DNA of 36,782 bases from a virus: positions 1-36,782 of IMG/VR virus record IMGVR_UViG_3300032253_000017; one strand, 5' to 3'. Positions within the stretch are counted from its first letter, which is position 1; every line of letters starts with the position of its first letter. The position numbers were made by a program, and so were the translations under genes. Under the pieces are notes generated by a model. It was not told the origin of the DNA and did no database searches. It saw only the letters and a list, made by a program, of their open reading frames with translations. Of this stretch, positions 567 through 36,751 are shown piece after piece.

Positions 567-986
567 ATGATTATGAAGAAAACACAAAAACCGTTAAGCT
601 TTAGTCTTTGCGCTGAAAACATAGCTTATGTTGAGCAAGAGTTTAAGGCTAGGCATAGAAATAAGAGTCACTGGATGGATGATTTATTAACTCATTTAAG
701 AAGCAAGAAAGCTCCAGTCAGTAAAGTGCCGCGCTCAAAAGCCAAGACGTACCCTAAAAACATGGATGATAGATTTTCTATGCTATGGGATATAAAAGGC
801 AAGAAAGGCTCTAAAAAGAACGCATACGCTAAATTTAAACTATTAGCTGCTGGCTCTACCGAAGATGGTTGCGAGGATTTTACTCAAATGCTTATAGATG
901 ACATATTGAAACGCCAACATGAGATAGGTGTTAAAGAGCAGCACTTGGTAACTTATCTTAATCAAGAAAATTGGGATCGCGAATAA
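567..986 (+). CDS. Early protein with a ribbon-helix-helix-like N-terminus; possible regulatory or replication-associated role
   Basis: 139-aa ORF. The N-terminal strand-helix-helix pattern is LSFSL..ENIAYVEQEF..SHWMDDLLTHL. The C-terminus FSMLWDIKGKKGSKKNAYAKF...TYLNQENWDRE resembles, from memory, a widespread phage family ending WLNQxRW(E/D). Confidence 0.5.
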   Translation: MIMKKTQKPLSFSLCAENIAYVEQEFKARHRNKSHWMDDLLTHLRSKKAPVSKVPRSKAKTYPKNMDDRFSMLWDIKGKKGSKKNAYAKFKLLAAGSTEDGCEDFTQMLIDDILKRQHEIGVKEQHLVTYLNQENWDRE

Positions 987-2383: not shown

Positions 2384-2571
2384 TTTTGAATAAAGAAGAT
2401 GAGGAAATGTTAAATTATTATGGCGACCAACTAACGACAATAAGAGAAAGAAATAAACGCTTAGAGCATGATGTCAAATTATTGACTAGTTACAATAAAA
2501 GCTCTAGGCGTGAAAACGGATTCTTATTGTGCTTAGTTATTTCTATGTCTCTATGGATTGCGACATCATGA
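2380..2571 (+). CDS. 63-aa protein with a coiled-coil segment and a C-terminal TM segment
   Basis: TTG start at 2380, with ATG 2407 as the alternative. The stop overlaps the next ATG (ATGA). The C-terminus is FLLCLVISMSLWIATS. Confidence 0.45.
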   Translation: MILNKEDEEMLNYYGDQLTTIRERNKRLEHDVKLLTSYNKSSRRENGFLLCLVISMSLWIATS

Positions 2572-3005
2572 AAGTTAATTTAATAGTTACATCAAATAAG
2601 GCGCTATGGCCTACCGATGATTTAGAGAAAGAAAAGCTATCTAAATTGAAGGTAGGTGAATTCTACACTTGTGACATTAAGCTGAATCAAAACTACAGGT
2701 TGCACTCTAAAATATTCGGGTTCTTTAAGTTTTGCACTCAATATTATTATGGTGATTCTGAACCAAGCAAACAGCAAATTGATTATGTTAGGCGTAAGCT
2801 TACAGTTATATCTGGCTATTACACGCAAGTCTTTAGTCGTGATGGTGATTCGTTTGAGCTTGTAGCTGACTCAATTAGTTATGAGAATATGCCTCCAGAA
2901 GAAAGAGGTATTTATTACAAGAAGATAACACAGTCTGCACTTGATAGGGTTTTTGATAGAGCAACAGATACTAATGTGATTAATCAAGTAATTGCTTGGT
3001 TTTGA
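2568..3005 (+). CDS. Conserved phage protein, tentatively DUF1367-like (nin-region type)
   Basis: 145 aa from ATG 2568. LSKLKVGEFYTCDIKLNQNYRLHSKIFGFFKFC resembles DUF1367 as I recall it. Not verified. Confidence 0.4.
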   Translation: MKVNLIVTSNKALWPTDDLEKEKLSKLKVGEFYTCDIKLNQNYRLHSKIFGFFKFCTQYYYGDSEPSKQQIDYVRRKLTVISGYYTQVFSRDGDSFELVADSISYENMPPEERGIYYKKITQSALDRVFDRATDTNVINQVIAWF

Positions 3006-3151
3006 TTATTTAATAAATAATACTTGATTTTAATTATATTAACGTCTAGTATTATTCATAACGAACTAGAGCAGAGTTTATATAGGTCGTTTTGATATAA
3101 CTTATTGATTTTACTAAGTGTACTTAAACGGAAAAGTAGGAGTGGATAATC

Positions 3152-3354: not shown

Positions 3355-3537
3355 ATGACAGGAAAAATGACACCATCGGCATTCAATAAAGTAGTAGAGC
3401 AAGATATTGAATGGCTAGAGAACATGGTTAGTGAATCGGACAAAGATGGCTCTCTAGAATTTGACCATATTGTAAACACGCTTCGTTATGCCGCCAAACA
3501 ATACAGCGACAATAAAAAACGAATAGACGATTTATAA
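3355..3537 (+). CDS. Hypothetical protein, 60 aa
   Basis: ATG preceded by AAAGTAGACGGAGAGATAACG. Confidence 0.55.
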   Translation: MTGKMTPSAFNKVVEQDIEWLENMVSESDKDGSLEFDHIVNTLRYAAKQYSDNKKRIDDL

Positions 3538-3774: not shown

Positions 3775-4221
3775 ATGAAATTCACAGCACAAGAGTTAAC
3801 AGAGTGGGATGGTCACCAAGACGCAGGTACTAGCGGTTGGATACCTGCTCGACCTGACGGTTGGAAAATTGAGGGGTTACTTAACCGTATTCACAATGCC
3901 TGGAAAGTAATTACTGGTGATTATGATGTAGTTGATTGGTATTCGTTCAGAAGAACAGAAACGAGCACGATATCAGTTGTCGTACCAAGCCAGCTACACA
4001 GGGACACTGTAAACCTCGTTTGGCAATTTTCCTCTGCAATGGCTAAGAAGTTAAGAAAGTCTGAATTAAAATATGGCTATGATAATAGATGGAAAGATAA
4101 TGACTGGGCTGATGAATGCAGAAAGCAGTTACAGCAGCATATTGATAAAGGCGACCCGTTAGACGTAGCTAATTACTGTGCTTTTCTTTGGTATATGAAA
4201 GAGTCAACTAGCGAGGATTAG
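3775..4221 (+). CDS. Hypothetical protein, 148 aa; the C-terminal half is possibly a MazG-like all-alpha NTP pyrophosphohydrolase fold (tentative)
   Basis: FSSAMAKKLRKSELKYGYDNRWKD...HIDKGDPLDVANYCAFLWYM resembles phage dATP/dGTP pyrophosphohydrolase-like domains from memory. Confidence 0.3.
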   Translation: MKFTAQELTEWDGHQDAGTSGWIPARPDGWKIEGLLNRIHNAWKVITGDYDVVDWYSFRRTETSTISVVVPSQLHRDTVNLVWQFSSAMAKKLRKSELKYGYDNRWKDNDWADECRKQLQQHIDKGDPLDVANYCAFLWYMKESTSED

Positions 4222-5355: not shown

Positions 5356-5363
5356 AGGTGAGT

Positions 5364-5924
5364 ATGCAAGTTGGATATGTAAGGGTAAGCTCTATAGACC
5401 AAAACCTAGATCGTCAATTAGATGGTATTGAGTTAGATAAGGTTTACGAGGAAAAGCTAAGTGGTAAAAGCCGAGAAAGGCCAAAGCTAAAAGAGTGTAT
5501 AGATTATCTGCGCGAAGGTGATACTCTGCACATTCATAGTATGGATAGATTATCAAGGTCATTAAAGGACTTGTTAAACATAGTTCATGAGTTAACCGAT
5601 AAAAATGTAATGGTTAAATTTCACGCTGAGAATATGGAGTTTGCAGGTAAAGATAACCCAATGAGTTATCTAATGCTTGGTATATTTGGATCTATACATC
5701 AATTTGAAATAGCAAACTTAAAGTTACGACAAGCCGAAGGTATAGCAAAAGCGAAAGCTAGAGGGCAGCAGTTCGGTCGTCGTAGCTTAAAAAAAAGGCT
5801 GGTAGAAGAACTTAAAGAAAGAAGATCAAAAGGCGAATCAGTAATTAAAATAGCAGCATCAATGAACATAGGTACATCGACCTGCTACAAATATTTGGAT
5901 GGAAAGCATGATAAAAGCATCTAG
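5364..5924 (+). CDS. Small serine recombinase, resolvase/invertase family (186 aa)
   Basis: The N-terminal catalytic motif is GYVRVSSIDQNLDRQ, followed by DRLSRS. The C-terminal HTH, QFGRRSLKKRLVEELKERRSKGESVIKIAASMNIGTSTCYKYL, aligns by eye with gamma-delta/Tn3 resolvase. ATG 5364 is preferred over GTG 5358. Confidence 0.9.
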   Translation: MQVGYVRVSSIDQNLDRQLDGIELDKVYEEKLSGKSRERPKLKECIDYLREGDTLHIHSMDRLSRSLKDLLNIVHELTDKNVMVKFHAENMEFAGKDNPMSYLMLGIFGSIHQFEIANLKLRQAEGIAKAKARGQQFGRRSLKKRLVEELKERRSKGESVIKIAASMNIGTSTCYKYLDGKHDKSI

Positions 5925-5977: not shown

Positions 5978-6112
5978 TTCGCAACAATAGAAATAACGGT
6001 TCTAGTATTCATTTAAGGTGTAGTGTAGTAAATTTACACTCAATGTCTGTTAAGTGGGTGAGTTCAATTGCAAAAAATATTAACTGTAATCACTAATCTG
6101 GATAACTTAAAG

Positions 6113-6673
6113 ATGAACAAAAAACGTAGATGTCGAGAGTGCAAAGAATATAAGGACTCTATCAGTATGCTGACTGTTAATGGTGGTTCATATTGTGATA
6201 TTGAGTGCTGTACGAAATATGCGTACAAAAAAGGCAAGAAAGCCACTAAAGCAAAGCACGTTAAGCAAAAGAAAGAATTAAAAGACAATGATAAACCTTT
6301 TAGATTAAAGTGCGCTCAATCGGCTTTTAACGCGTTTATACGAAAGCGTGACGAATCACTTGGTTGCATTAGTTGTAATAAGGATAATAATTGGCATGGT
6401 CAATGGCACGCAGGCCACTACAAGACAACCAAGTCACGACCTGATATTCGATTTAATGAAGATAACTGTCACAAACAATGCTCAGTGTGCAATAACCATT
6501 TATCAGGAAATATAGGAGAATACACCCCTAGACTTATAGGGAGAATAGGTCAAGATAAATATTTAGTGTTAACGTTAAATAAAGTAAAAAGATATACTTG
6601 TGCTGAATTAAAAGAAATTGAACGACTTTACAAACGAAAGCTAAAAGAATTAGCGCAGGGTGTGAGAGCCTAA
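6113..6673 (+). CDS. ninG: NinG-like recombination protein
   Basis: N-terminal KKRRCRECKEY and C-terminal AFNAFIRKRDESLGCISC...WHAGHYKTTKSRPDIRFNEDNCHKQCSVCNNHLSGN align closely with lambda NinG as recalled. ATG 6113 is preferred over TTG 6068. Confidence 0.85.
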   Translation: MNKKRRCRECKEYKDSISMLTVNGGSYCDIECCTKYAYKKGKKATKAKHVKQKKELKDNDKPFRLKCAQSAFNAFIRKRDESLGCISCNKDNNWHGQWHAGHYKTTKSRPDIRFNEDNCHKQCSVCNNHLSGNIGEYTPRLIGRIGQDKYLVLTLNKVKRYTCAELKEIERLYKRKLKELAQGVRA

Positions 6674-10675: not shown

Positions 10676-10708
10676 TAAAGCCCCCTTAAATAAACAATAT
10701 TATACATC

Positions 10709-13027
10709 TTAATGGTCGCCACCGCCATTTACATACCTAGACGCTGAATCACCAAAAAATGTCACGGTAGCGCCATTATCAACAACACCTTTACCTTTTA
10801 ACCCGCCATTAGCGTTGTTGTTAGCGCCATCTAAACCAAAATTACCAGACAATAAAGAATCCGTACCGTTATCACCAGTCTCACCAGAAAAAACATTAAG
10901 ACTAGCATTTGTTAACTGCCCAGCAACACCAGCCTCACCTATATTCCTTCCGTCACCACCATTACCACTATTACCGCCTTTTTCAGTTATAACATCAGGG
11001 TCAAACCCGCCATCACCACCGCTAGGTGCAATTATATATCCATCTGCCGTAGGGTGTGCTGTTGACGGTGTAGCGCCTGAAAAATATATATCACAATCAA
11101 CGCCTTCTGCATCAAAAACAACACCACCATTCTCACCATTGCCAACAGCAGGAAAATAAAGCCATGATGAAGATTCTTGATCCCATTCAGCACCGCCACC
11201 ATTACCACCCTTGCCACCTTTAGCCATTAACTCAGCGCCATTAGCTAGTATTATAATGATCTTTGATCCAACTGGGAATGCGCCCGCCCTTATAGCTGGT
11301 ATATCTTTGTTGTTGCCGCCACACATAGTGCCATCAAAAACAAAGGTAATTGTAACAGGTTGACTAGGAGCGCCAGCGTATTGTACATATAAGTTTACAT
11401 TGGTTGTACTACCAGAAATCACAACCTCAGAACCAGAGGCAAATATAGGGTCGTAACTTAACGCATAAACACTGTAATCTCGACCTAAACTAGTATAGTT
11501 CGGCTTTATTGATGTGATCTGTACCCTATCACCAGCAGACTGCAACCCATCAAAACCAACGTCTGAAAATGTAGATATGTCAACAATATCTCCAACCTTA
11601 AAATTAAGCTTTCTTTCTTGCGCCTTAAAGATGTAATCTTGAGGGTTTGAAAATCTACTAACCCATCTATTAACAAGTAGGTCTGCGGAATCCTTATCAA
11701 TCACCGCTGTAAAATCAAAGCTTTTTGTTTTAACCTCGCCAAACAAGTCGTCAGATTCTAGCGTGGTATTTTTAAATATAGAGGACTTACTAAAGCTTGT
11801 AACCTCATCAGGGTTTGTTAAGTAAGGTTTATTGTATACAATTAATGCTCTTGTAGATCTTAATGTCTCATTTCTTTTTTTAGTGACACTTTCAAAATCT
11901 ATCTCGTTACCTTCTGTAATAGATATACTTGACTCCTTCCATACGCTTATAGCTGATAGCTTTATTTCTCTATCTACCGGATCGAACCACATATCAAGCA
12001 TATAGTTAGTCAGTATCTCTTTTAATACGTCTGACGTAGGCTTTGACTCTATCCATATAGTGTTTACTCTTGTTGATGGGTGCCACTCATCAACCTCAGC
12101 AGTCCACTTCGCTTTAGGTATAAAAGACGAATCTGTACCTATATCTAAAAGTATTCGCTCTAGTAAATCATCAATACGTTCATTATCAGACACCTCGCAC
12201 ACAAAAACCTCATCTAGTGGATCGTGAGTATCGCTAGTAGTCCTAGTTAACGTATTAGTGTAAACAATATTTGTGCCTCTTGTTTGCACTGTTATCGTTG
12301 CTGATCCTGTGCCTATCCCACTAACACCAATAACCTTGCACAATTCATCGGAAACCCTTACAGTATCACCTATCTGATATGTAACATTAGCATCTACATC
12401 CCAAGAAACTGTTGTCTGGTTTACTGCTGTGCGCAAAGAGCCTTCAAGCGGTAAAGGCCACACAGAGTCGCCGATATTTATTTTTGATAGTTCGTCTTTG
12501 AACTTAAAAGACCATTCGCCATTTTTACTACTGCTTACTGACTCTATGATATAGTGCCTCGTCTCAGCACCATTAGTTAAATCTATAGTCCCATCAATTT
12601 CAAGTCTGTAGTTTTTAATTCGTATGTTTTTGTTTGTGAGTTCGTTTCTTGAGTTTAACTTAGCCAAGAAAGAGCCTTGAGAAATCACGGAAGAAGTCAC
12701 GTCTGGAGCATCGGGGTTAGGATCTTTATTTGTAACATCTATCATAGTTACCGAACCACCACCCCTAGATGCTAACCCTTTATCTACATTTAGCTTAGCT
12801 GGTGTCTCAGATATCTTTTTAACTATCCTTAATATTCCGCTTTCCGGCATATTAAGTGGCGCATCTGTATTTGTAAACTTGTAAGTCCTAGTTGCATTAC
12901 TTGCCTGTCCTGATGATTTTGGAGTGCCAAACCCAGTTAAGGCGCCCTCCACCACTGGTAAGTCGATCTCTATCACTGAAAAGTGAGTTTGATTGAATAA
13001 CCCTCTTGATTGCTCAAATGTACTCAT
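10709..13027 (-). CDS. Tail tip/hub (Tal-like, host-specificity) protein with a Gly-rich C-terminal region, 772 aa
   Basis: Large ORF two genes after the tape measure. C-terminal about 180 aa is rich in GGxGG/GNGG stretches. Confidence 0.6.
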   Translation of the reverse strand: MSTFEQSRGLFNQTHFSVIEIDLPVVEGALTGFGTPKSSGQASNATRTYKFTNTDAPLNMPESGILRIVKKISETPAKLNVDKGLASRGGGSVTMIDVTNKDPNPDAPDVTSSVISQGSFLAKLNSRNELTNKNIRIKNYRLEIDGTIDLTNGAETRHYIIESVSSSKNGEWSFKFKDELSKINIGDSVWPLPLEGSLRTAVNQTTVSWDVDANVTYQIGDTVRVSDELCKVIGVSGIGTGSATITVQTRGTNIVYTNTLTRTTSDTHDPLDEVFVCEVSDNERIDDLLERILLDIGTDSSFIPKAKWTAEVDEWHPSTRVNTIWIESKPTSDVLKEILTNYMLDMWFDPVDREIKLSAISVWKESSISITEGNEIDFESVTKKRNETLRSTRALIVYNKPYLTNPDEVTSFSKSSIFKNTTLESDDLFGEVKTKSFDFTAVIDKDSADLLVNRWVSRFSNPQDYIFKAQERKLNFKVGDIVDISTFSDVGFDGLQSAGDRVQITSIKPNYTSLGRDYSVYALSYDPIFASGSEVVISGSTTNVNLYVQYAGAPSQPVTITFVFDGTMCGGNNKDIPAIRAGAFPVGSKIIIILANGAELMAKGGKGGNGGGAEWDQESSSWLYFPAVGNGENGGVVFDAEGVDCDIYFSGATPSTAHPTADGYIIAPSGGDGGFDPDVITEKGGNSGNGGDGRNIGEAGVAGQLTNASLNVFSGETGDNGTDSLLSGNFGLDGANNNANGGLKGKGVVDNGATVTFFGDSASRYVNGGGDH

Positions 13028-13809: not shown

Positions 13810-15515
13810 TAACGACCCTGCCTTGTTCTTTCTTCTAATCCGCCAGCAATACCATCAAGAAATAAATTACCGCTTTCATCTGTTATGACTAATCGCATTT
13901 CCTGAATGCCTTCTTCTGTTTGTTCTGTGATATCTAACGTCGATGTTTCTGGCGCAAAATCTGACTGCTGTTGCTGACTAGATGATGAAGCGCCGCCGCT
14001 AGATATAGAGCTGCCACCTCCGCCACCAGCTAGCGAGCCTAGCGTAGTAGCCGCAATAGCCGCAATACTTAAATTGCCGCTTGCCTGAATACTTGCAGCA
14101 ACAGGAGGGCCAGCAACAGGCCCTAGCTCAGCTATAGCTTTCATTGATGCAACTTGAGTATTAAAAAATACCTCGCTAGCTGATAACGCCTGACTACCAA
14201 TAAACAAAAGCTTTCCTAACGTATCATTATGACCAAGGATTGCTGACGTTATAGACATTATCGAACTTATATTTTTTCTTTCTAGTGATTGTTCTGTTTT
14301 TTGCCTCTTTTCATCTAAAGATATTTTATCTTTTGCGGCTTTTTCGTTTATTTTTGCTTTTTCTTCTTCTGCCTTTCTGTCCATTTCAACTATGGCCATA
14401 AGATATTCATCTTCAAGCTGTAGCTTTAATTCGTTATTCTTGCCAATTATTTCAAGCTCTCTTTCTAGCTTTTCAGTGAGTAACTCTTCCTCACCTTTAA
14501 ACCTGTCAGCTATAGCCTGTATTTGCGCCTCACCCTTAAGTGCATCTATCTCAAGCTCTCTAGCCTCCGCATCAGCTATCGCAGCCTCTTCTTTTGCATC
14601 TCTCAGGGCATATATAGCATCTATTTGTGCGCTTATATTTGCTGGTATTTCCTCACCAACTTTTAATCCTAGCTCTTGCGCTATATTGTACCTTAGAGCA
14701 GCCTCTTCACCTGCTGATAGCGCTATTATCTGAGATGTAAGCCCTTCCGTTATACTTTCTGATGATTTTTTGAATTTTTCAGCGTTACCACCTAGCCCGT
14801 TAAGGGTTTCGGTTGTCTCTTTCATTTCTAGTCTAACGGTAACTAGAGAGCCTTTAACTTTGGCTAACTTAGCCTCTAACTCTTCCTGTGAATCGCCGAA
14901 TATACCCTCTAGTATATTTGCACCTTCCGAAGCGTTTTGTAGCGAGACTAATTCAGATTGAATAACATTGACTTCTTTGGCTAGTCCTAATGCAACCTTC
15001 TGCTGTTCTTTTAGCTTTTCAGTTAATACATTTCTAGCTACTGCCTGTTGAGCCTTGGTTAGCTTGTCAAAATTCTTTGTTAGTACGCTTATGGAATCAT
15101 CAAGATCAATAATACCTTTTGTGGCTTTAAATAGGTTTGGTAGCATCATCCCTGCTATTGATGCAGATATACCAACAACAGCACCAAGCAATGGAGCACC
15201 TAAAACGAAACCTAAATCGGCAGACTGTTGCGACAATGCAAGCATGGCGCCTTGTCCGCCTTGAATTTGCCCTATAAATTGCTGAACTTGTATTCCTGCT
15301 TGCCCTGATGCGCGACCTATACCAGCTATATTACTATTTACTGCTTTAGATGTTTTTGATAGCTTCGCGCCTGACGTAGAAAGTCCATCTAGTGAATTGT
15401 CTGCTTTTTTTGCGCTATCACTAACATTTACAAGGTTTGAGCTAGTCTTTTTTAATGCTGCATCTAATTTACTTGTGTTTGCATCAAGTTCGACGACTAA
15501 TGATTCAGTAGTGAT
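13809..15515 (-). CDS. Tail tape measure protein (start uncertain; provisionally ATC 15515, 568 aa)
   Basis: Long helical A/E/K/L-rich ORF following G/G-T. GQAGIQVQQFIGQIQGGQGAMLALSQQ resembles a motif seen in many tape-measure proteins. The first ATG is at 15245, but 91 further stop-free codons lie upstream with no ATG, GTG or TTG. Confidence 0.8.
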   Translation of the reverse strand: MTTESLVVELDANTSKLDAALKKTSSNLVNVSDSAKKADNSLDGLSTSGAKLSKTSKAVNSNIAGIGRASGQAGIQVQQFIGQIQGGQGAMLALSQQSADLGFVLGAPLLGAVVGISASIAGMMLPNLFKATKGIIDLDDSISVLTKNFDKLTKAQQAVARNVLTEKLKEQQKVALGLAKEVNVIQSELVSLQNASEGANILEGIFGDSQEELEAKLAKVKGSLVTVRLEMKETTETLNGLGGNAEKFKKSSESITEGLTSQIIALSAGEEAALRYNIAQELGLKVGEEIPANISAQIDAIYALRDAKEEAAIADAEARELEIDALKGEAQIQAIADRFKGEEELLTEKLERELEIIGKNNELKLQLEDEYLMAIVEMDRKAEEEKAKINEKAAKDKISLDEKRQKTEQSLERKNISSIMSITSAILGHNDTLGKLLFIGSQALSASEVFFNTQVASMKAIAELGPVAGPPVAASIQASGNLSIAAIAATTLGSLAGGGGGSSISSGGASSSSQQQQSDFAPETSTLDITEQTEEGIQEMRLVITDESGNLFLDGIAGGLEERTRQGR

Positions 15516-21527: not shown

Positions 21528-22214
21528 CTAACCTAACAACTTAGCATATGCAGCCCGTTTAGCTGTGCCATCGTTACTGTGTTGGTGATTGTCGTTTCCG
21601 TTACCTTTGCCGCCATTAGATTGTATTTTAAATATTTCTGGCTGGCTTGCTACGAATTCAGATACCGTCAAATTACCGTCAGCACCTGTCAAAATATTGT
21701 CACCTTCTCTAGCTACCACTTGACCATTATCAATACTAAACTTAGATTTAATCTGAGCCATGACAGAGTCAAAAGCATCGGGGTTAATCTTGTGTTCACC
21801 GAAAGCTTTCGTTGCTGCGCCTTCAATCTCATGTTTAGCGATGAGTGAATTGTAATTTCCTGAGCTATCATCTAATTGCTTAGTTAAGATGTTAATCTTG
21901 GCTTCATAATCAGATTTCATAACACTTGTGTTTTCAGCTAGCAGCGTGTCAAACTCACCCTTATCTATTAGCTCTTTGTCTCGAAGTTTGCGCTCTTGCT
22001 CTTCTAGTTTTCGATACTTTTCTATGTCTACGCCTTTGAACTGCTCTTGTTGCTTTAGTAGGTCAACATTTGTACTTCTGAATTCGTCAATCTTTGACTT
22101 ATCAACAGCACCATCTACTTGTAGTTGATAACCATCACCAGTTTGTGCGTAGAATGTTTTTTCTGCATCGCTTAACTTTTCGAAATCTTCTGAGCTTAGT
22201 TTAAATTTTAACAT
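21528..22214 (-). CDS. Scaffolding protein, 228 aa
   Basis: Helical, charged, coiled-coil-like ORF between the MuF-like gene and the capsid gene. Confidence 0.65.
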   Translation of the reverse strand: MLKFKLSSEDFEKLSDAEKTFYAQTGDGYQLQVDGAVDKSKIDEFRSTNVDLLKQQEQFKGVDIEKYRKLEEQERKLRDKELIDKGEFDTLLAENTSVMKSDYEAKINILTKQLDDSSGNYNSLIAKHEIEGAATKAFGEHKINPDAFDSVMAQIKSKFSIDNGQVVAREGDNILTGADGNLTVSEFVASQPEIFKIQSNGGKGNGNDNHQHSNDGTAKRAAYAKLLG

Positions 22215-27075: not shown

Positions 27076-28536
27076 TTATTTAAAATTAACCGTTATAGCG
27101 CTTGGTTTGTAGCCTACGCTGATTGAATCATTTTCATATTTTACACTAATACCGCTATCTTTAAAACCAACCGTTACATTGCCAATAGTTTGCACTTGTC
27201 CTGATGATATAAATGGGTTGTTTGATGCTGATAAACTATCAATAGAGTTTGGCGAAATATTTACAATTGATTTAAATTCTATCAGTGGATTTACTGAATC
27301 GCTTTGACTGTCTATTGCGTTAGGTGATATTGATAACGAACTAGTAAAGCTAATTACTGGATCTAAACTTAACGATGAACTATCAATAACATTTGGTGCT
27401 AAATTTAATACACTTGCAAATTGTATACTTGGATTGCTAGACGATGAATCTGAATCTATTACTTGAGGCGTGACGTTTAATACGCTACTAAATGATATTA
27501 ACGGGTCGTTACTTGTTGAACCCGAATCAATAGAGTTAGGCGAAACATTTAAAATACTTTCAAATGTGACTATAGGATTTAATGCAGCGCTTGAGCTATC
27601 AATACTTAATGGTGATATATTTACTACAGAGTTAAAAGCTATTGCTGGGTTGCTTGATGTGCTAACGCTGTTTATTGAGCTTGGTGTTACTTCAATTGCT
27701 GAGCCACTACTTTCTAAGGCGTAACCAATAAAATCAACGCTACCAGCAGTAGCCAACGCGCTACCTGATGCAGTTCTGAAATCACCGCCTGCATAGTTCG
27801 CTAAGTCTGCGGTAGTTCTATTCTGTAATGAGTTGCCGTTGTCTGGTGCATCTGTTCCGTCACTAGCGTTATAGTCTGAGGCTGCGTTAAATGTACCGAG
27901 CCAAGGATCTGGACTACCTATAGATAGTGAATTGGTTATGGTGGTATCTGCTGTACCTGTATCTATACCTACCGCACTAGCGTCAACTGATGTTAGTTTG
28001 TTTGCTGTACGGATGTTATTGTTACCAAAGTCAAACCCTGTAGTTCCTAAATATGATAAACACTCGCTTATATTTAGATTGTTGGCGTTATTCATAAAAA
28101 ACAAAATTGCGCCTGATGTAGATGCTGTAGTTGCGTAAACATTTGATATTGTACAATCATTGCCGAACCAATCTACACCCCTGCCAGAACCTAGTGTTCT
28201 AGTGTTTTTAAATCCTATACCTGATAACCTAGTAAAGCTTGATGAGTTAACGAAAACACCAGCAAAACCTACTGATGCCGTAAGGTAAATCCCTGCATCG
28301 GTTACGTGGTCATATTCATCACCTGTAGCTGCTTTTATATCCACATACCTTGTTGCGTCTTGTGTTATGGCAGGCATGGTCACACTATCAGCCAAGCCGC
28401 CAGAAAACTTACTTACAATAATTCTCCACTGCTCATCTGCCGCTACTAGGTTTGCTGTTATTGCTGCTACGGCTGTTGATAGTAAAGTATAATCTCCGCC
28501 ACTAGGTTTAACTGTTTTTGTTATTACCGTAGCCAT
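27076..28536 (-). CDS. Fibre/tailspike-like protein: N-terminal right-handed beta-helix-like region plus seven 24-aa tandem repeats
   Basis: KPSGGDYTLLSTAVAAI is typical of pectate-lyase-fold depolymerase N-termini (recollection). NDCTISNVYA and NISECLSY look like beta-helix rungs. The repeats are described in a separate feature. Confidence 0.6.
   Translation of the reverse strand: MATVITKTVKPSGGDYTLLSTAVAAITANLVAADEQWRIIVSKFSGGLADSVTMPAITQDATRYVDIKAATGDEYDHVTDAGIYLTASVGFAGVFVNSSSFTRLSGIGFKNTRTLGSGRGVDWFGNDCTISNVYATTASTSGAILFFMNNANNLNISECLSYLGTTGFDFGNNNIRTANKLTSVDASAVGIDTGTADTTITNSLSIGSPDPWLGTFNAASDYNASDGTDAPDNGNSLQNRTTADLANYAGGDFRTASGSALATAGSVDFIGYALESSGSAIEVTPSSINSVSTSSNPAIAFNSVVNISPLSIDSSSAALNPIVTFESILNVSPNSIDSGSTSNDPLISFSSVLNVTPQVIDSDSSSSNPSIQFASVLNLAPNVIDSSSLSLDPVISFTSSLSISPNAIDSQSDSVNPLIEFKSIVNISPNSIDSLSASNNPFISSGQVQTIGNVTVGFKDSGISVKYENDSISVGYKPSAITVNFK
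27187..27690 (-). repeat. Seven tandem 72-bp (24-aa) degenerate coding repeats
   Basis: The unit is [VIL]-[STA]-P-x-x-I-[DN]-S-x-S-x-S-x-[ND]-P-x-I-x-F-x-S-[VIL]-[VL]-N, covering aa 283-450 of the 486-aa protein. Confidence 0.85.
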
Positions 28537-32719: not shown

Positions 32720-33309
32720 TATGCTTTTAACTCCATTATTTGCTGCCTAACTTTTTTATTTATCGCATAACCTGATCCTTGCAGTGATTTAATTATGCTG
32801 TCGTTTGTTTCACCATTAGATAAGGCGTCAATCATGCTTTGTTTGTCAATCTCGAATGAATTGTACCAATCAGTCTCGTTGTGCTGTGCCGTACCTTTTG
32901 TTGCGCTACCTGCATCATCATCTTCTTGCGCCAACCCTAGCACAGCCGCATATTGATAACGCCTAAAATACGTCACACTAGCACCAAGAACCTGAGCCGG
33001 ATTATTAGCACCACCTCCGGCTAACTTAGCGATAGGAATAATACAAGATTCTGTCATATACTCACCGCTAGAGTGACCTAAAATAGTTTCAATAGTGGTG
33101 TTGCTATTATCATCACTACCTAGAAACTGGATAACGCTTAATCCATTTTTTGCTAAAATAGGTTTCGCAGCATCAATACATGCACCAAGCGTAGCGTACT
33201 TATAGCCATGACCCTCTTTTCCTTTTTCAACATTCTCTAACTCACCCTGAAACACTGACACAGCTTTCAACAATTCTTTAATTGATTCTGATTTATTCAT
33301 CTTCGCCAC
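32719..33309 (-). CDS. erf: ERF-family single-strand annealing protein
   Basis: GYKYATLGACIDAAKPILAKNGLSVIQ...HSSGE...GASVTYFRRYQYAAVLGLAQEDDD aligns with P22 Erf as recalled. The start is GTG 33309 or ATG 33300. Confidence 0.8.
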   Translation of the reverse strand: MAKMNKSESIKELLKAVSVFQGELENVEKGKEGHGYKYATLGACIDAAKPILAKNGLSVIQFLGSDDNSNTTIETILGHSSGEYMTESCIIPIAKLAGGGANNPAQVLGASVTYFRRYQYAAVLGLAQEDDDAGSATKGTAQHNETDWYNSFEIDKQSMIDALSNGETNDSIIKSLQGSGYAINKKVRQQIMELKA

Positions 33310-33430
33310 CCGTTAAATTATCTTGATTAGCCTCATGTTGATATTGGCACGCTTCGCAGTAACCATCGCTTGAAATATCCCACTCTAAAAAATCACCGTA
33401 ACAACCTTTACATCCAAATAGTTCAATCAT
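33293..33430 (-). CDS. 45-aa zinc-ribbon peptide
   Basis: Hand translation MIELFGCKGCYGDFLEWDISSDGYCEACQYQHEANQDNLTGGEDE, with two CxxC pairs. Overlaps the erf start. Confidence 0.45.
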   Translation of the reverse strand: MIELFGCKGCYGDFLEWDISSDGYCEACQYQHEANQDNLTGGEDE

Positions 33431-33596
33431 TTTCTTCTACCTCCAAGCTTTCATCACCTACAATAATGTTATGCAACAACCCTTGAACTTGATGAATTGT
33501 AGTTAATTCATTTACCGTTATAAGCAAGCTAAACTGTTGTAGCACTGTTTTTTCTGCTATGCGTAATAACTCATGCATTTCACCTTTTAAATCCAT
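33423..33596 (-). CDS. Hypothetical protein, 57 aa
   Basis: Hand translation MDLKGEMHELLRIAEKTVLQQFSLLITVNELTTIHQVQGLLHNIIVGDESLEVEEND. ATGA overlap downstream. Confidence 0.4.
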   Translation of the reverse strand: MDLKGEMHELLRIAEKTVLQQFSLLITVNELTTIHQVQGLLHNIIVGDESLEVEEND

Positions 33597-33600
33597 CAGT

Positions 33601-33756
33601 TTAATCCTCTACTGTATCAATTGTATATTCACACTCTGAGCAAACTAAATCAGTTTCGCCTAGCTCTATGTACATATTACCTACGCACTCAGGACAAAAG
33701 CTTTCTCCTTCGTTACAGTGTTCTGCTATTTGATTCTCTATATGACAATATTGCAT
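33601..33756 (-). CDS. 51-aa zinc-ribbon peptide; first gene of the long leftward unit
   Basis: Hand translation MQYCHIENQIAEHCNEGESFCPECVGNMYIELGETDLVCSECEYTIDTVED. Confidence 0.45.
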   Translation of the reverse strand: MQYCHIENQIAEHCNEGESFCPECVGNMYIELGETDLVCSECEYTIDTVED

Positions 33757-33784
33757 TTGCGTAAACCTTGTTTGTTGTTGATGT

Positions 33785-33890
33785 ATCTAATTTAGCACAC
33801 TGATTTAGATTGTCAAACCTTTTAACGGTTAATTTCAGTGTTATTTTTAGGTTGACTATTATTGTGTAATGACTTACTGTTTATTTAGAT
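33785..33890. promoter_or_regulatory. Divergent control region with operator-like ATTTAGAT motifs and two candidate promoters
   Basis: ATTTAGAT lies at 33803-33810 and 33883-33890, with an inverted ATCTAA at 33785-33790. The leftward promoter is TTGACA (33816-33811)-N16-TAAATT (33794-33789), with the inverted repeat in its spacer. The rightward promoter is TTGACT (33852)-N17-TACTGT (33875). Confidence 0.4.
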
Positions 33891-33910
33891 TTAACTAATT
33901 AGGTGTATTT

Positions 33911-34060
33911 ATGAGTATTAATATTAAAGTAAACAAGAAAACTAGCGAACAATTAACAGCTCTATCAAGTAAGCGCAAAAATGAAAACGCATTAAATAGA
34001 ACTAAGCAAGATATTGTTGCGGAACTGGTTGAGCAATCATTTAAAAAGGAGTGTAAATAA
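33911..34060 (+). CDS. 49-aa ribbon-helix-helix (Arc/CopG-like) DNA-binding protein
   Basis: Hand translation MSINIKVNKKTSEQLTALSSKRKNENALNRTKQDIVAELVEQSFKKECK, with a beta-strand then two helices. Confidence 0.5.
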   Translation: MSINIKVNKKTSEQLTALSSKRKNENALNRTKQDIVAELVEQSFKKECK

Positions 34061-34161
34061 TGAATAAAGATAATGACGGAAACAAATACGCAGCCATAGC
34101 ACTTGGTTTATTTCTTCTAGCTAGTACAGTAGAGTTTATTTTAACTAACTTAGGAGTTTAA
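34060..34161 (+). CDS. 33-aa single-TM peptide
   Basis: Hand translation MNKDNDGNKYAAIALGLFLLASTVEFILTNLGV. TAATG overlap with the RHH gene. Confidence 0.4.
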   Translation: MNKDNDGNKYAAIALGLFLLASTVEFILTNLGV

Positions 34162-34163
34162 CC

Positions 34164-34340
34164 ATGACTGATGTTATAAATAAAAAATTACAAGAAACTA
34201 TTAAACGCGAGTGTATGATTAAAAGCGCAACTAAAAAAGCTCAAGATGATTATATAGAGCGACAAAATGATGCTAGACATGCGATAGAAGATTTAAAGGA
34301 ACTAGCAAAGGTTGAGCAAGATTATTTAGATTATGAATAA
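34164..34340 (+). CDS. 58-aa helical/coiled-coil protein
   Basis: Hand translation MTDVINKKLQETIKRECMIKSATKKAQDDYIERQNDARHAIEDLKELAKVEQDYLDYE. Confidence 0.4.
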   Translation: MTDVINKKLQETIKRECMIKSATKKAQDDYIERQNDARHAIEDLKELAKVEQDYLDYE

Positions 34341-34367
34341 AATTGTTGAGTTGTTATATAATTTACT

Positions 34368-34399
34368 AAAAAGATAAGCGCCAATTAAGGCGCTTTTTT
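34368..34399. terminator. Bidirectional rho-independent terminator between the + island and ssb
   Basis: 7-bp stem AAGCGCC (34376-34382) with GGCGCTT (34389-34395) and a 6-nt loop. A T-run follows on the + strand, and ATCTTTTT follows on the - strand. Confidence 0.7.
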
Positions 34400-34404
34400 A
34401 TTAT

Positions 34405-34881
34405 CTATTGTTGTTGGTTATAATAACCTTGTTGATTAGGTTGTTGTGCTTTGTCCTGCTGATTAAATCCCTGTTGGTTATTCTGCTGAAAACCCTGCTG
34501 TTGGAATCCTTGTTGTGGTCGCGCCTGTGTTTGGCTTGGCTGGTTGCTTGGCTTACTATCTAGCATTTCCATCTGGAATACTTTTATTTCAGTGCTGTAT
34601 TGATCAACACCTTCTTTGTTTTGCCATTTACGCGTTTCTAGCTTACCCTCAACGTACAACTTAGAGCCTTTCTTAACGTACTCGCCAACAACCTCCGCCA
34701 AACGACCACTAAAAACTAATTTAGACCACTCTGTCTTTTCTTTCTGCTCACCCGTTTGCTTATCCTTCCACTTCTCGCTAGTGGCTAAAGTTAAATTTGC
34801 AAATGCTGTACCTGACTGACTGAATCTTACTTCTGGATCTTGACCGATATTTCCCAGAAGAATTACTTTATTTATACTCAT
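34405..34881 (-). CDS. ssb: Single-stranded DNA-binding protein (OB-fold) with a Q/N-rich tail lacking the acidic tip
   Basis: The N-terminus [20 protein letters not shown]...[37 protein letters not shown] is canonical for SSB. The C-terminus ends ...GYYNQQQ rather than DDDIPF. Confidence 0.9.
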
Positions 34882-35453: not shown

Positions 35454-35819
35454 TCATACCTGTGGCTCTAAATAATCATTTAAAACTTCCTGCAATTCAT
35501 CGTCAAGATAAAAAACCTCTGCACTTGCTAGTGTTAATATTTTCCTGTACTTGTTAACTTCTGGCATAACCTCAAAAAACAAATACGAGTCGCTATAAAA
35601 CATATTTATTTTGCAATGATTATTAATTGCATCATCTTCCGCCATTGAAATATCATAAGTAACACGTTCCTTTTCAAAGAAAATCATGTATCTCTCTTTT
35701 GTTTTGATAGCGTAGTCATTTTTATATGATAAAGAAATAAAATTATCAGCCTTATCTACAATTGACTGTAACTCACTCTTTGTTTTATCTGACAAATAAC
35801 CTTTTGCATAACCTTTCAT
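35454..35819 (-). CDS. Hypothetical protein, 121 aa
   Basis: ATG preceded by AACAAAGGAGATATAAAC. First ORF after the 737-bp non-coding region. Confidence 0.6.
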   Translation of the reverse strand: MKGYAKGYLSDKTKSELQSIVDKADNFISLSYKNDYAIKTKERYMIFFEKERVTYDISMAEDDAINNHCKINMFYSDSYLFFEVMPEVNKYRKILTLASAEVFYLDDELQEVLNDYLEPQV

Positions 35820-36556
35820 GTTTATATCTCCTTTGTTAAATTTAAAATATAGCAGTCATTAGATACGTTAGTGCATGGATGAGATGTCTTTATCTCAATA
35901 TATACTTAACTATCTTTATGCGCCATTACTGGTAAAACAATATAAATTAGTATCAGCCTAACTTTTCACAATCCTTGTTGGTAGTCCACACCATAAACCA
36001 TGCACAAAACAGCTGTATATCCGCGTATCTAAACGTCAATTTATATTAAGTTGTAACTAAATTGCTATTTTTATTGTTATTAGCTAAACATTAGGGATTT
36101 TTACAAGATACCAATTAACTTGGCAGTATTAATCTGTATAGTGAAATGAGCTGGGTTTCAACAAACCGCATAGAAATATAAAATTGACTAGAAATTATAT
36201 TCATATAGATAATTGACTAGATCACCTATACACCAACTCACTTCACTTATACAGACTATAGAAGCTTTGAAAGGGATTGTGTCTGGGTAGCTTTAGATTA
36301 GCCAACGGACGTGCTGTTAAACTATTTTACGGTTACTAATCAACCAGACACAAAAAAGGGCTTATAAATTCAAACCCTAGCAACTCGGGGTAGATATAGC
36401 ATAAGTGGAAGTTTCCCACGAATGCTAAGACCTGAACTTATAAACCCTAATTACTATATCTATACACAGCTTCCACACTGCAATTACTATTGTACTATGT
36501 TATTCCTTATTTGCAAGTTTAAAGTTTGCGGCCTTTACACCGCGTTAATTTACATA
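35820..36556. other. 737-bp ORF-free, AT-rich, repeat-bearing region (candidate origin / ncRNA / regulatory locus)
   Basis: I tabulated all minus-strand stops, and the longest open stretch is 35 codons. The supplied track has no + ORF of 60 aa or more here. The region contains several direct and inverted repeats, described in the findings. Confidence 0.7.
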
Positions 36557-36751
36557 CTAGCCATCGCCAGAGCCATCGCCAGAGCCATCGCCAGAGCCAT
36601 CGCCAGAGCCATAGCCATCGCCATAGCCAGAGCCATCGCCAGAGCCATAGCCATCGCCATAGCCATAGCCATAGCCAGAGCCATCGCCAGAGCCATCGCC
36701 AGAGCCATAGCCATAGCCTTTTTTATCTTTATCTGTGATTACTCTTTCCAT
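36557..36751 (-). CDS. Putative 64-aa peptide: leader MERVITDKDKK followed by a (Gly-[Tyr/Ser/Asp])27 repeat
   Basis: The ATG overlaps the stop of the 121-aa gene (ATGGAAAGAGTAA), and a GAGAG run lies 9-13 nt upstream. Five of six frames are open through the repeat, so coding status is unproven. Confidence 0.45.
   Translation of the reverse strand: MERVITDKDKKGYGYGSGDGSGDGSGYGYGYGDGYGSGDGSGYGDGYGSGDGSGDGSGDGSGDG
36560..36718. repeat. Tandem hexanucleotide array: 26 x GCCA[T/G][A/C] plus GCC (159 bp)
   Basis: Counted unit by unit: 10 GCCATC, 9 GCCAGA and 7 GCCATA, with GCCATCGCCAGA as the commonest 12-mer. Confidence 0.95.

Follow-up and report, generated by a model that had tools for sequence, protein, structure and literature searches.

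Attenuators, riboswitch platforms and the countertranscript attenuation of pT181 and pIP501 are all built on a promoter-proximal leader, in which a hairpin followed by a U tract is combined with an alternative structure that forms earlier in the transcript. The c4 immunity RNAs of phages P1 and P7 are also derived from a leader and carry short segments that are complementary to sites in the same transcript. The CI RNA of P4, with its targets seqA and seqC, is a phage RNA made from the leader of the operon it controls, and its pairing governs premature termination (PMC4825925), while for IsrK of Gifsy-1 a promoter and a partly read-through terminator give a short RNA and a long isoform, the latter being the target in trans of the former (PMC4825925). 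In T4-type phages, the PeSL cassettes are conserved non-coding modules of a promoter and a stem-loop that flank variable accessory genes and are seemingly mobile (PMC2839356, PMC4122927). Here we describe a 737-bp gap, at positions 35820-36556 of a virus DNA of 36,782 nucleotides (IMG/VR record IMGVR_UViG_3300032253_000017; this whole stretch is referred to below as the window), and the minus-strand RNA cassette that it contains.

According to our analysis, the gap is best read as a self-contained non-coding regulatory cassette of the minus strand and not as an origin of replication, and we place the finding with the cis-regulatory leaders or small RNAs of phages, its design with two folds being unusual. 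The probability that the gap holds a conserved and structured RNA cassette of the minus strand is, in our estimate, above 0.9. This RNA family, with its conserved modular leader, is strongly supported; none of the GenBank records examined annotates it, and Rfam 15 does not include it. It may be one of the unnamed entries of a published catalogue of about 10,000 candidate phage RNAs, four of which lie upstream of N6-adenine methyltransferases (PMC10690425).

The gap and its conserved RNA

The gap is flanked by the minus-strand open reading frames (ORFs) 35454..35819 and 36557..36751, and the initial annotation had singled it out as an ORF-free and repeat-rich interruption of a tightly packed genome. 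This description holds. Nothing longer than 29 aa is encoded wholly inside it, and longer frames only clip its edge (36526..36738 on the plus strand, 70 aa, and 36550..36714 on the minus strand, 54 aa, both of the hexamer array); its GC content is 0.31-0.32 against about 0.37 for the genome, and every repeat listed was found. A threshold of 60 aa leaves one other big junction, at 33309-34405; that one is full of small ORFs, so the gap at 35820-36556 is the sole truly non-coding stretch. A test for a small protein-coding ORF in the gap was negative also at the level of the alignments, which contain 1-nt indels and compensatory substitutions of the RNA type.

A blastn comparison of the gap with GenBank phages returned about 140 nt (36345-36495) that are 79-85% identical to Pseudoalteromonas phage H105/1 and to Vibrio phages 1.122.A/B and NF, and in all of them the matching regions are unannotated intergenic gaps of 460-610 bp whose neighbouring genes are oriented as in the window. 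With about a dozen contigs of uncultured marine viruses added to these phages, identity of the core is 79-93%, and the unannotated gaps that hold it measure 460-740 bp. A further 11 contigs from IMG/VR and about 10 from metagenomes were obtained by pattern scans, which brought the total to 16 distinct sequences; broader DNA patterns for the core gave only the same 11 loci again in IMG/VR. When 24.8 kb of the genome (12000-36782) was compared by megablast with 50,697 GenBank phage records, the RNA of about 130 nt was the only match, to H105/1, and the proteins common to the window and to the cassette loci are only 22-63% identical. With its 80-93% nucleotide identity against these values, the cassette is by far the most conserved sequence that these marine phages have in common. 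The phage of this window has no close sequenced relative, and the 486-aa product of 27076..28536 gave no tblastn match at 1e-5.

A covariance model of two of the hairpins described below, F and B, recovered every copy, and in addition a diverged second copy in phage NF and more diverged members elsewhere. These diverged members, which we call subtype 2, are the second NF copy, phages 1.054.O, 1.275.O, HS5 and BS5, and loci L043-L049. Vibrio phage NF (L038) thus carries two cassettes, at 10688-10842 on the minus strand and at 21728-21870 on the plus strand, one per divergent operon, and the two belong to different subtypes with different sequences in the pairings E and D. This arrangement in NF led us to consider an antitermination RNA of the HK022 put type, which consists of two simple stem-loops; that architecture is unlike the present RNA and the candidate was dropped.

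No model of Rfam 15 reached its gathering score anywhere in the window, among them C4, IsrK, tRNA, tmRNA, ROOL, GOLLD, group I and II introns and 6S. At E values up to 10 the region yields only weak generic matches, mostly to microRNA-precursor hairpin models, and at E values up to 0.1 there was nothing in five other cassette loci. The comparison with Rfam proposed by the initial annotation therefore gave no known family, whereas the accompanying question about structural conservation was answered positively, as base pairs are kept in the relatives by compensatory changes. A match of the core to bacterial genomes turned out to be a conserved protein-coding gene of candidate-phyla-radiation bacteria (Saccharibacteria and Paceibacterota metagenome-assembled genomes; loci L015-L018, L020, L022, L023, L035 and L036), unrelated to the cassette, and was discarded. 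GenBank/RefSeq records place tiny opposite-strand 'hypothetical proteins' over the cassette in HS5 (L040, 2438-2578 and 2754-2843) and in BS5 (L041, 2565-2678), and these are probably spurious gene calls.

The evidence for an RNA comes from covariation. In an alignment of the 16 sequences that was not fitted to the model (A2), with four helices defined (F, E, D and B), 98.3% of 716 cells in 45 pairs are paired and 16 pairs show compensatory changes; none of 500 shuffled controls was as good, and slid controls were only 41-52% paired. An alignment of 25 distinct sequences (A5) shows compensatory changes in 27 of 29 pairs, this one being fitted to the model, which inflates the pair counts. The paired cells include 122 G-U, and since G-U pairs become A-C mismatches when the other strand is read, the 98.3% pairing of the minus strand against 81.6% of the plus strand makes the minus strand that of the RNA. 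Its core folds at -57 kcal/mol with z = -4.5. A three-way-junction fold of the plus strand was also considered and rejected, one of its stems being broken in the Vibrio phages and the G-U pairs favouring the minus strand. By the generic tests for a structured non-coding RNA, then, the locus gives both compensatory pairs above shuffled and slid controls and a strand-specific G-U signal, and of the alternatives named in the initial annotation it is that of one or more non-coding RNAs which these data show.

Two apparently incompatible folds and a possible switch

The core RNA, of about 130 nt, occupies 36352..36481 on the minus strand. Immediately before it the promoter scan gave a sigma70-type promoter at 36516-36489 (TTGCAA, a 16-nt spacer and TACAAT), whose -10 element ends 7 nt before the first base of hairpin F. 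Taken by itself, the match in this window does not exceed chance. In 20 of 22 cassettes a promoter of this type (8-11 of 12 consensus positions, the -10 element mostly TATAAT) ends at a distance of 6-20 nt from hairpin F on its upstream side, in otherwise unrelated surrounding sequence.

Hairpin F (36466..36481) has a GCAG/CUGU stem of 4 bp, with compensatory changes in all four pairs, and an 8-nt loop, UGUGGAAG. The loop serves at the same time as the 5' strand of helix E: its GUGGAAG (36476-36470) pairs with CUUCCAC at 36405..36411, and the 7 pairs are 100% paired, 3 of them with compensatory changes. Together, F and E have the geometry of a classical H-type pseudoknot, the gaps being 1 nt between the 5' strands of F and E and 0 nt between the 5' strand of E and the 3' strand of F. 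Helix D, detected also as inverted repeat I12, joins UAGAUAUAGUA (36452..36462), which ends 4 nt before hairpin B, to UGCUAUAUCUA (36391..36401) in the apical loop of that hairpin. Its 9 counted pairs are 100% paired, one column pair occurs with 5 pair types, and in almost every homologue it has 10-12 contiguous bp and a linker to B of 0-5 nt. About 11 different E sequences exist in the family, each with its matching complement, and D sequences are comparably many. A test for contiguous helices worked for D and not for E, for which 6-7-mers tolerating G-U are common by chance; per-sequence pairing of the 5' tail with the loop, scored by RNAduplex against shuffles, gave z of about -1 and was uninformative.

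Hairpin B (36358..36447) is long and imperfect, of 25-33 bp with many G-U pairs, and is the minimum-free-energy fold. Its 5' strand runs from 36447 to about 36415 and its 3' strand from about 36390 to 36358, and the loop of about 25 nt holds the 3' strands of both E and D. The 25 counted pairs are 97.7% paired, with compensatory changes in 23 of 25 in the 25-sequence set that was fitted to the model. The elements CTTATAAA..AACCCTA, which the initial annotation had listed as a repeated pair, are present and turn out to be the two arms of this long inverted repeat; they resemble a direct repeat because TTATAA is palindromic. Directly after the GCCC base of the hairpin stands a tract of six U (36352..36357; match of the terminator scan at 36378-36357), which is kept in most homologues. 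Hairpin B and the U6 tract thus show the layout of an attenuator, with a G+C-closed hairpin and, directly behind it, a U tract, both placed in the 5' leader of a co-oriented gene.

The 5' strand of D lies 0-5 nt from the base of B, and its 3' strand lies in the loop of B, 25-33 bp away, so D, and E with it, could not coexist with a complete hairpin B. The exclusion would hold although the two sets of pairs have no nucleotides in common: linkers of 4 nt or 1 nt appear too short to span the hairpin, and the argument is a geometrical and topological one. Both folds covary all the same. In subtype 2 the 3' strands of D and E stand in reversed order and are both still complementary to their 5' strands, which means that the pairing is conserved and not one three-dimensional arrangement, and this speaks for switching or recognition rather than for a fixed fold with a catalytic or scaffold function. 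At full length all of the RNAs adopt B, at -40 to -48 kcal/mol, and transcripts cut before the 3' strand of B fold into D in 5 of 7 subtype-2 RNAs.

From these observations it would be logical to suggest a promoter-proximal switch between termination and readthrough, followed by a leader, and we put the probability of this reading somewhat below even, at about 0.45. RNA synthesis would start at about 36481, from the promoter at 36516-36489, and the first 130 nt or so would be able to fold in two ways. The fold available during synthesis would consist of F, the pseudoknot helix E and the 10-12 bp of D, which tie the 5' segment to the future loop of B; this would trap the 5' strand of B in a closed loop, so that the terminator-like hairpin at U6 could be completed only late or not at all. 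The other fold, the thermodynamic minimum, would be the 25-33-bp hairpin B followed by U6, which resembles a terminator. Competition between the two would decide between release of an RNA of about 130 nt at U6 and readthrough into helix A, a structured leader of about 530 nt and the downstream gene. The released RNA might possibly act back on nascent copies through the E and D pairings, and would then be similar to the CI RNA of P4 and IsrK of Gifsy-1, phage RNAs with an action on their own transcripts. The structured and conserved RNA, its strand, the conserved place of the promoter, the covariation of both folds and the order of the modules are observed; termination at U6, the direction in which the switch works, any action in trans and the biological output are the inferred part of this proposal.

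Several observations weigh against it. The proposed antiterminator does not overlap a strand of the terminator, as it would in classical attenuators. The U tract is absent in HS5 and L043 and weak in L046, and these three keep F, E, D and B, so termination cannot be the only output. Neither a ligand-binding domain nor an antisense promoter is conserved, and a search downstream for a further copy of E or D, a third one that could be a separate target in trans, gave nothing consistent. Truncated folds of the window's own subtype-1 RNA do not contain helix D, where it has to be added that E and D cross and that the program cannot represent such crossing. Finally, the long-range helices Z1 and Z2 of the 3' leader, described below, are only suggestive.

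A stand-alone small RNA, a kind of 'RNA moron' with its own promoter and terminator, which acts in trans on host or phage mRNAs or on a protein, would account for part of the same data. In that case the 5' segment would serve as a seed, covered or exposed according to its pairing with the loop of the same RNA, and the rest of the gap would be an unrelated leader. A promoter of its own and an end made of a hairpin and U6 are the classic architecture of a small-RNA gene; the cassette sits between unrelated genes in many phages, also within head-gene clusters; its nucleotide conservation is far above that of the proteins; and the blocks AGUAAUUnGGGUUUAU and ACUUAUGCU, invariant in subtype 1, could be binding sites. 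However, these blocks are not kept in subtype 2, the variable parts E and D are matched by partners in the same RNA, whereas a seed would be kept constant, one ordered series of leader modules with a co-oriented gene behind it follows in every case, and some members have no U tract. We consider this explanation possible, though clearly less probable than the switch.

To the same level of doubt belongs an extension of the switch, in which E and D would form a programmable code of self-recognition: the released RNA of about 130 nt would bind nascent copies of the cassette, or itself, and flip them to the terminator fold. The differing E and D sequences of the two NF copies fit a role in specificity without proving it. 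If this suggestion is true, the outcome would be a phage-specific and dosage-dependent shut-off of the downstream genes, an immunity or timing device made of RNA only, in which co-infecting phages would be orthogonal to each other, as would the two cassettes of NF, and whose folds would exclude each other by topology and not by competition for the same nucleotides.

A related reading of such a code is an RNA-only homo-oligomer. D and E would then form between molecules, with the 5' tail and the F loop of each RNA paired to the hairpin loop of its neighbour, giving dimers, rings or filaments in the manner of the phi29 pRNA or of the ROOL, GOLLD and manA assemblies. In its favour, D and E seem incompatible with B in one molecule and yet all three covary, the swapped order of the two 3' strands would be tolerable for intermolecular pairing, the RNA is borne by phages, and at some loci it adjoins tRNA-like sequences or tRNAs. 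Natural multimers made of RNA only and built on kissing loops, some of them phage-associated, were found recently (PMC12286853; bioRxiv 10.64898/2026.07.01.735769). On the other side, no Rfam match to ROOL, GOLLD or manA was obtained, and the F/E geometry, with its loops of 1 nt and 0 nt, is that of an ordinary intramolecular pseudoknot. We regard self-assembly as improbable.

Hairpin B also invites an interpretation in terms of RNA processing, with B as a site for RNase III and helix A with the U tract as a site for RNase P or RNase E, so that cleavage would both separate and stabilise the messages on either side. In phage T7, hairpins for RNase III stand between the early genes. The 25-33 bp of B with its internal irregularities, the orientation shared with the neighbouring genes, the start of helix A directly after the U tract and the T-arm-like hairpins in its domain at some loci are all in agreement with such a module. 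It would not, however, need the conserved promoter directly upstream, it leaves helices D, E and F unexplained, no tRNA-like domain is recognised by ARAGORN or Rfam, and the helix A domain is naturally deleted in two loci. This possibility is an unlikely one, only slightly better placed than self-assembly, and we return to the termination/readthrough switch as our preferred explanation.

The leader, and the origin and attachment-site hypotheses

Downstream of the U tract comes helix A (36277..36353; inverted repeat I6), formed by UUGUGUCUGG at 36353-36344 and CCAGACACAA at 36286-36277, 10 bp with 100% complementarity, which encloses a variable stem-loop domain of 57 nt. Its arms covary across loci, as read partly by eye (GUAUCUG/CAGAUAC, GUACCUG/CAGGUAC, GUGCGU/ACGCAC and GUGUCUA/UAGACAC), and the interior varies from 47 to 110 nt. 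In L024 (about 3455-3480) and L045 (about 3090-3110) the whole domain is deleted and the U tract is joined to the tail, so the domain is dispensable or modular. The tail itself, UCCCUUUCA (36268..36276), is single-stranded and reads AAnCCCUUUC(A) in most cassettes. In L003 (about 3900-4000), L006 (about 14020-14120) and L008 (about 1090-1185) the helix A domain has one or two hairpins, a T-loop-like GGUUCGAnUCC and a closing stem of 7-11 bp; neither ARAGORN nor Rfam calls a tRNA in these three domains. A genuine tRNA-Arg lies just downstream in L006, at 13919-13995.

The next element is a long hairpin at 36130..36258 (inverted repeat I5 with direct repeat D2), which has a lower stem of about 25 bp, forms in the fold of the whole leader and has no homologue in the other loci compared. 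At its top are the direct repeats that the initial annotation had given as 11 nt; they are real and longer, 17 nt at 36176-36192 and 36205-36221 with 88% identity, and they are absent from all related loci compared. Inside these repeats lies the best sigma70-like match of the region on the plus strand (36184-36213; TTGACT, an 18-nt spacer and GATAAT; 10 of 12), which would read into the core RNA in the antisense direction and is peculiar to this window.

The leader ends in a conserved block, Z, whose parts lie at 36126-35935 and 35882-35837. The first part (35935..36126; TGACGUUUAGAnnCGCGGAUAnACAGC...GUCAUGGUUAUAUGGUUUGG...CCAACAAGGAUUGUGAA) holds the DnaA-like box discussed below and the 5' arms of two candidate long-range helices, Z1 (36032-36024) and Z2 (36008-35998). 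The 3' arms of Z2 (35878-35868) and Z1 (35867-35859) are in the leader's 3' end, CAUCCAUGCACUAACGUAUCUAAUGAC (35817..35882), which is conserved in L034, L006, L041 and L043. Block Z is 75-83% identical in L034, L006, L011, L043 and L045, and its 1-nt indels mean that it is not coding. Pairing in helices Z1 and Z2 amounts to 89%, while slid controls give 17-49%; their covariation is not significant in 7 sequences, the alignment of which contains some misalignment. A ribosome-binding site GGAG (35831-35828) precedes the ATG (35819-35817) of a downstream ORFan of 121 aa, which has no IMG/VR relative and no PHROG or Pfam family. The whole leader of 686 nt folds at -181 kcal/mol, with z = -4.85. 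When viral contigs were scanned for the 3' end of block Z, 10 loci were obtained, and in 8 of them the core RNA stands 250-500 nt upstream on the same strand, by which the modules make one ordered cassette.

In all 9 annotated contexts the cassette has the orientation of the next gene, with 285-533 nt of further leader between them. These next genes are DNA methyltransferases, calcineurin-like or Ser/Thr phosphoesterases, head scaffold or portal genes, and in the present case the 121-aa ORFan. With such a variety of genes behind it from one phage to another, the cassette behaves as a regulatory module that is portable. No conserved partner protein was found beside it, as the flanking ORFs have no homologues in the other loci.

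Between the stop of the upstream repeat ORF (36557) and the promoter, the sequence contains a short G+C-rich hairpin, CGCGGUGUAAAGGCCGCA (36527..36544, minus strand; the scan for terminator-like elements reported it on the plus strand), which may end the upstream transcription unit. That upstream hexamer-repeat 'gene' (36557-36751) reads (G-S/Y-G-D)n on the minus strand, the region is open in two other frames as well (70 aa on the plus strand and 54 aa on the minus strand), and a comparison with protein families gave one weak, sub-threshold Pfam match only. In the other large junction, 33309-34405, the minus strand has three small ORFs of 45, 57 and 51 aa, the last with two CxxC pairs; a plus-strand module of three genes, 33911..34340 (49, 33 and 58 aa), lies antisense within the minus-strand operon, and a G+C-rich hairpin at about 34372-34403 is flanked on both sides by U/A runs.

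The initial annotation had favoured a host-dependent origin of replication for the gap, and such an origin might be RNA-primed as in ColE1. The stretch is indeed AT-rich and non-coding, it lies about 0.7-1 kb from the GC-skew sign change and from ORF 567..986, which is weakly similar to replication initiators, and a transcript-primed origin would likewise show conservation at the RNA level. The box TAGTCCACA at 35982-35990, on which the proposal relied in part, is present, but when at most 2 mismatches to TTATCCACA are allowed the window has 121 such sites where 139 +/- 9 would be expected, so that the box is at chance level; in the relatives the site reads TGGTCAG or TGGCCTA and is thus not conserved. 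There are no iterons in the gap, only two-copy families of direct repeats, the clearest of them being the 17-nt pair specific to this window. The GC-skew calculation that had been recommended gave no inflection at the gap: its skew of -0.15 is the value of the neighbouring minus-strand genes, and the sign changes at about 450-570, where gene orientation flips (449/567). Homologous cassettes are found inside head-gene clusters, and phage NF has two of them, which is not the behaviour of origins; natural deletions of the helix A domain exist, and what is conserved is conserved on a single strand, at the RNA level and with G-U pairs. We therefore regard an origin in the gap as very unlikely; if there is one in this genome, it is more likely near 567..986. 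More generally, to be ORF-free, AT-rich and repeat-rich is not sufficient ground for calling a sequence an origin.

Still less can be said for a phage attachment site (attP) sharing sequence with a host tRNA or tmRNA gene, the other alternative raised at the outset, which we would assign a next to negligible chance. The T-arm-like GGUUCGAnUCC motifs within the helix A domain of some relatives could be quoted in its support. But ARAGORN detects no tRNA or tmRNA in the window, and in the first 14 loci it gave only the tRNA-Arg of L006; an exact-pattern scan for the core over 185,579 representative bacterial genomes gave no true match; and covariation with G-U pairs indicates an RNA. Among the ORFs scanned there is no tyrosine or large serine integrase, and the sole recombinase is a small serine recombinase of the invertase type (5358..5924). 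It is encoded, together with NinB and NinG/Rap (2529..3005 and 6068..6673), in the plus-strand operon.

Relation to known regulatory RNAs

Like P4 CI and c4, the present RNA carries short segments complementary to other sites of its own transcript. Here these segments, E and D, change from phage to phage in step with their partners, just as determinants of specificity would. Neither the Rfam C4 model nor models of the IsrK/seqA type match it in sequence or structure; both partners lie within about 90 nt of one RNA of about 130 nt that has its own promoter, and no second target was found downstream; the host phages are marine and siphophage-like, not P4 or P1; and action in trans is only proposed here. 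From IsrK the cassette differs also in that IsrK activates translation of a downstream ORF, that no homology between the two was detected, and that no pairing between the short RNA and the leader was found in our case. The interchangeable E and D pairings, with two versions in one phage, still suggest a specificity code, and this can be tested with the cultured phages NF, 1.122.A, H105/1, HS5 and BS5.

With attenuators the cassette has its general layout in common, placed as it is upstream of a gene of the same orientation, whereas its alternative fold has no nucleotides in common with the terminator, so that exclusion would be steric or topological, and three members do without a U tract. Two folds that covary and, on geometrical grounds, are sterically incompatible would make an unusual design for an RNA switch. 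ROOL, GOLLD and manA are likewise phage-borne, highly structured, sometimes found beside tRNAs, and contain pairings that make sense only between molecules (PMC12286853; bioRxiv 10.64898/2026.07.01.735769). In our family, unlike these, there is no Rfam match, the architecture is modular and partly dispensable, and oligomers are only hypothetical.

In genomic behaviour the PeSL cassettes are comparable, as the present one precedes methyltransferases, phosphoesterases, head genes or ORFans in very different phages, and would be a reusable regulatory module for phages of Vibrio and Pseudoalteromonas. PeSLs, however, are short motifs of a promoter and a terminator, while the cassette described here extends over 450-740 nt and combines several covarying RNA domains.

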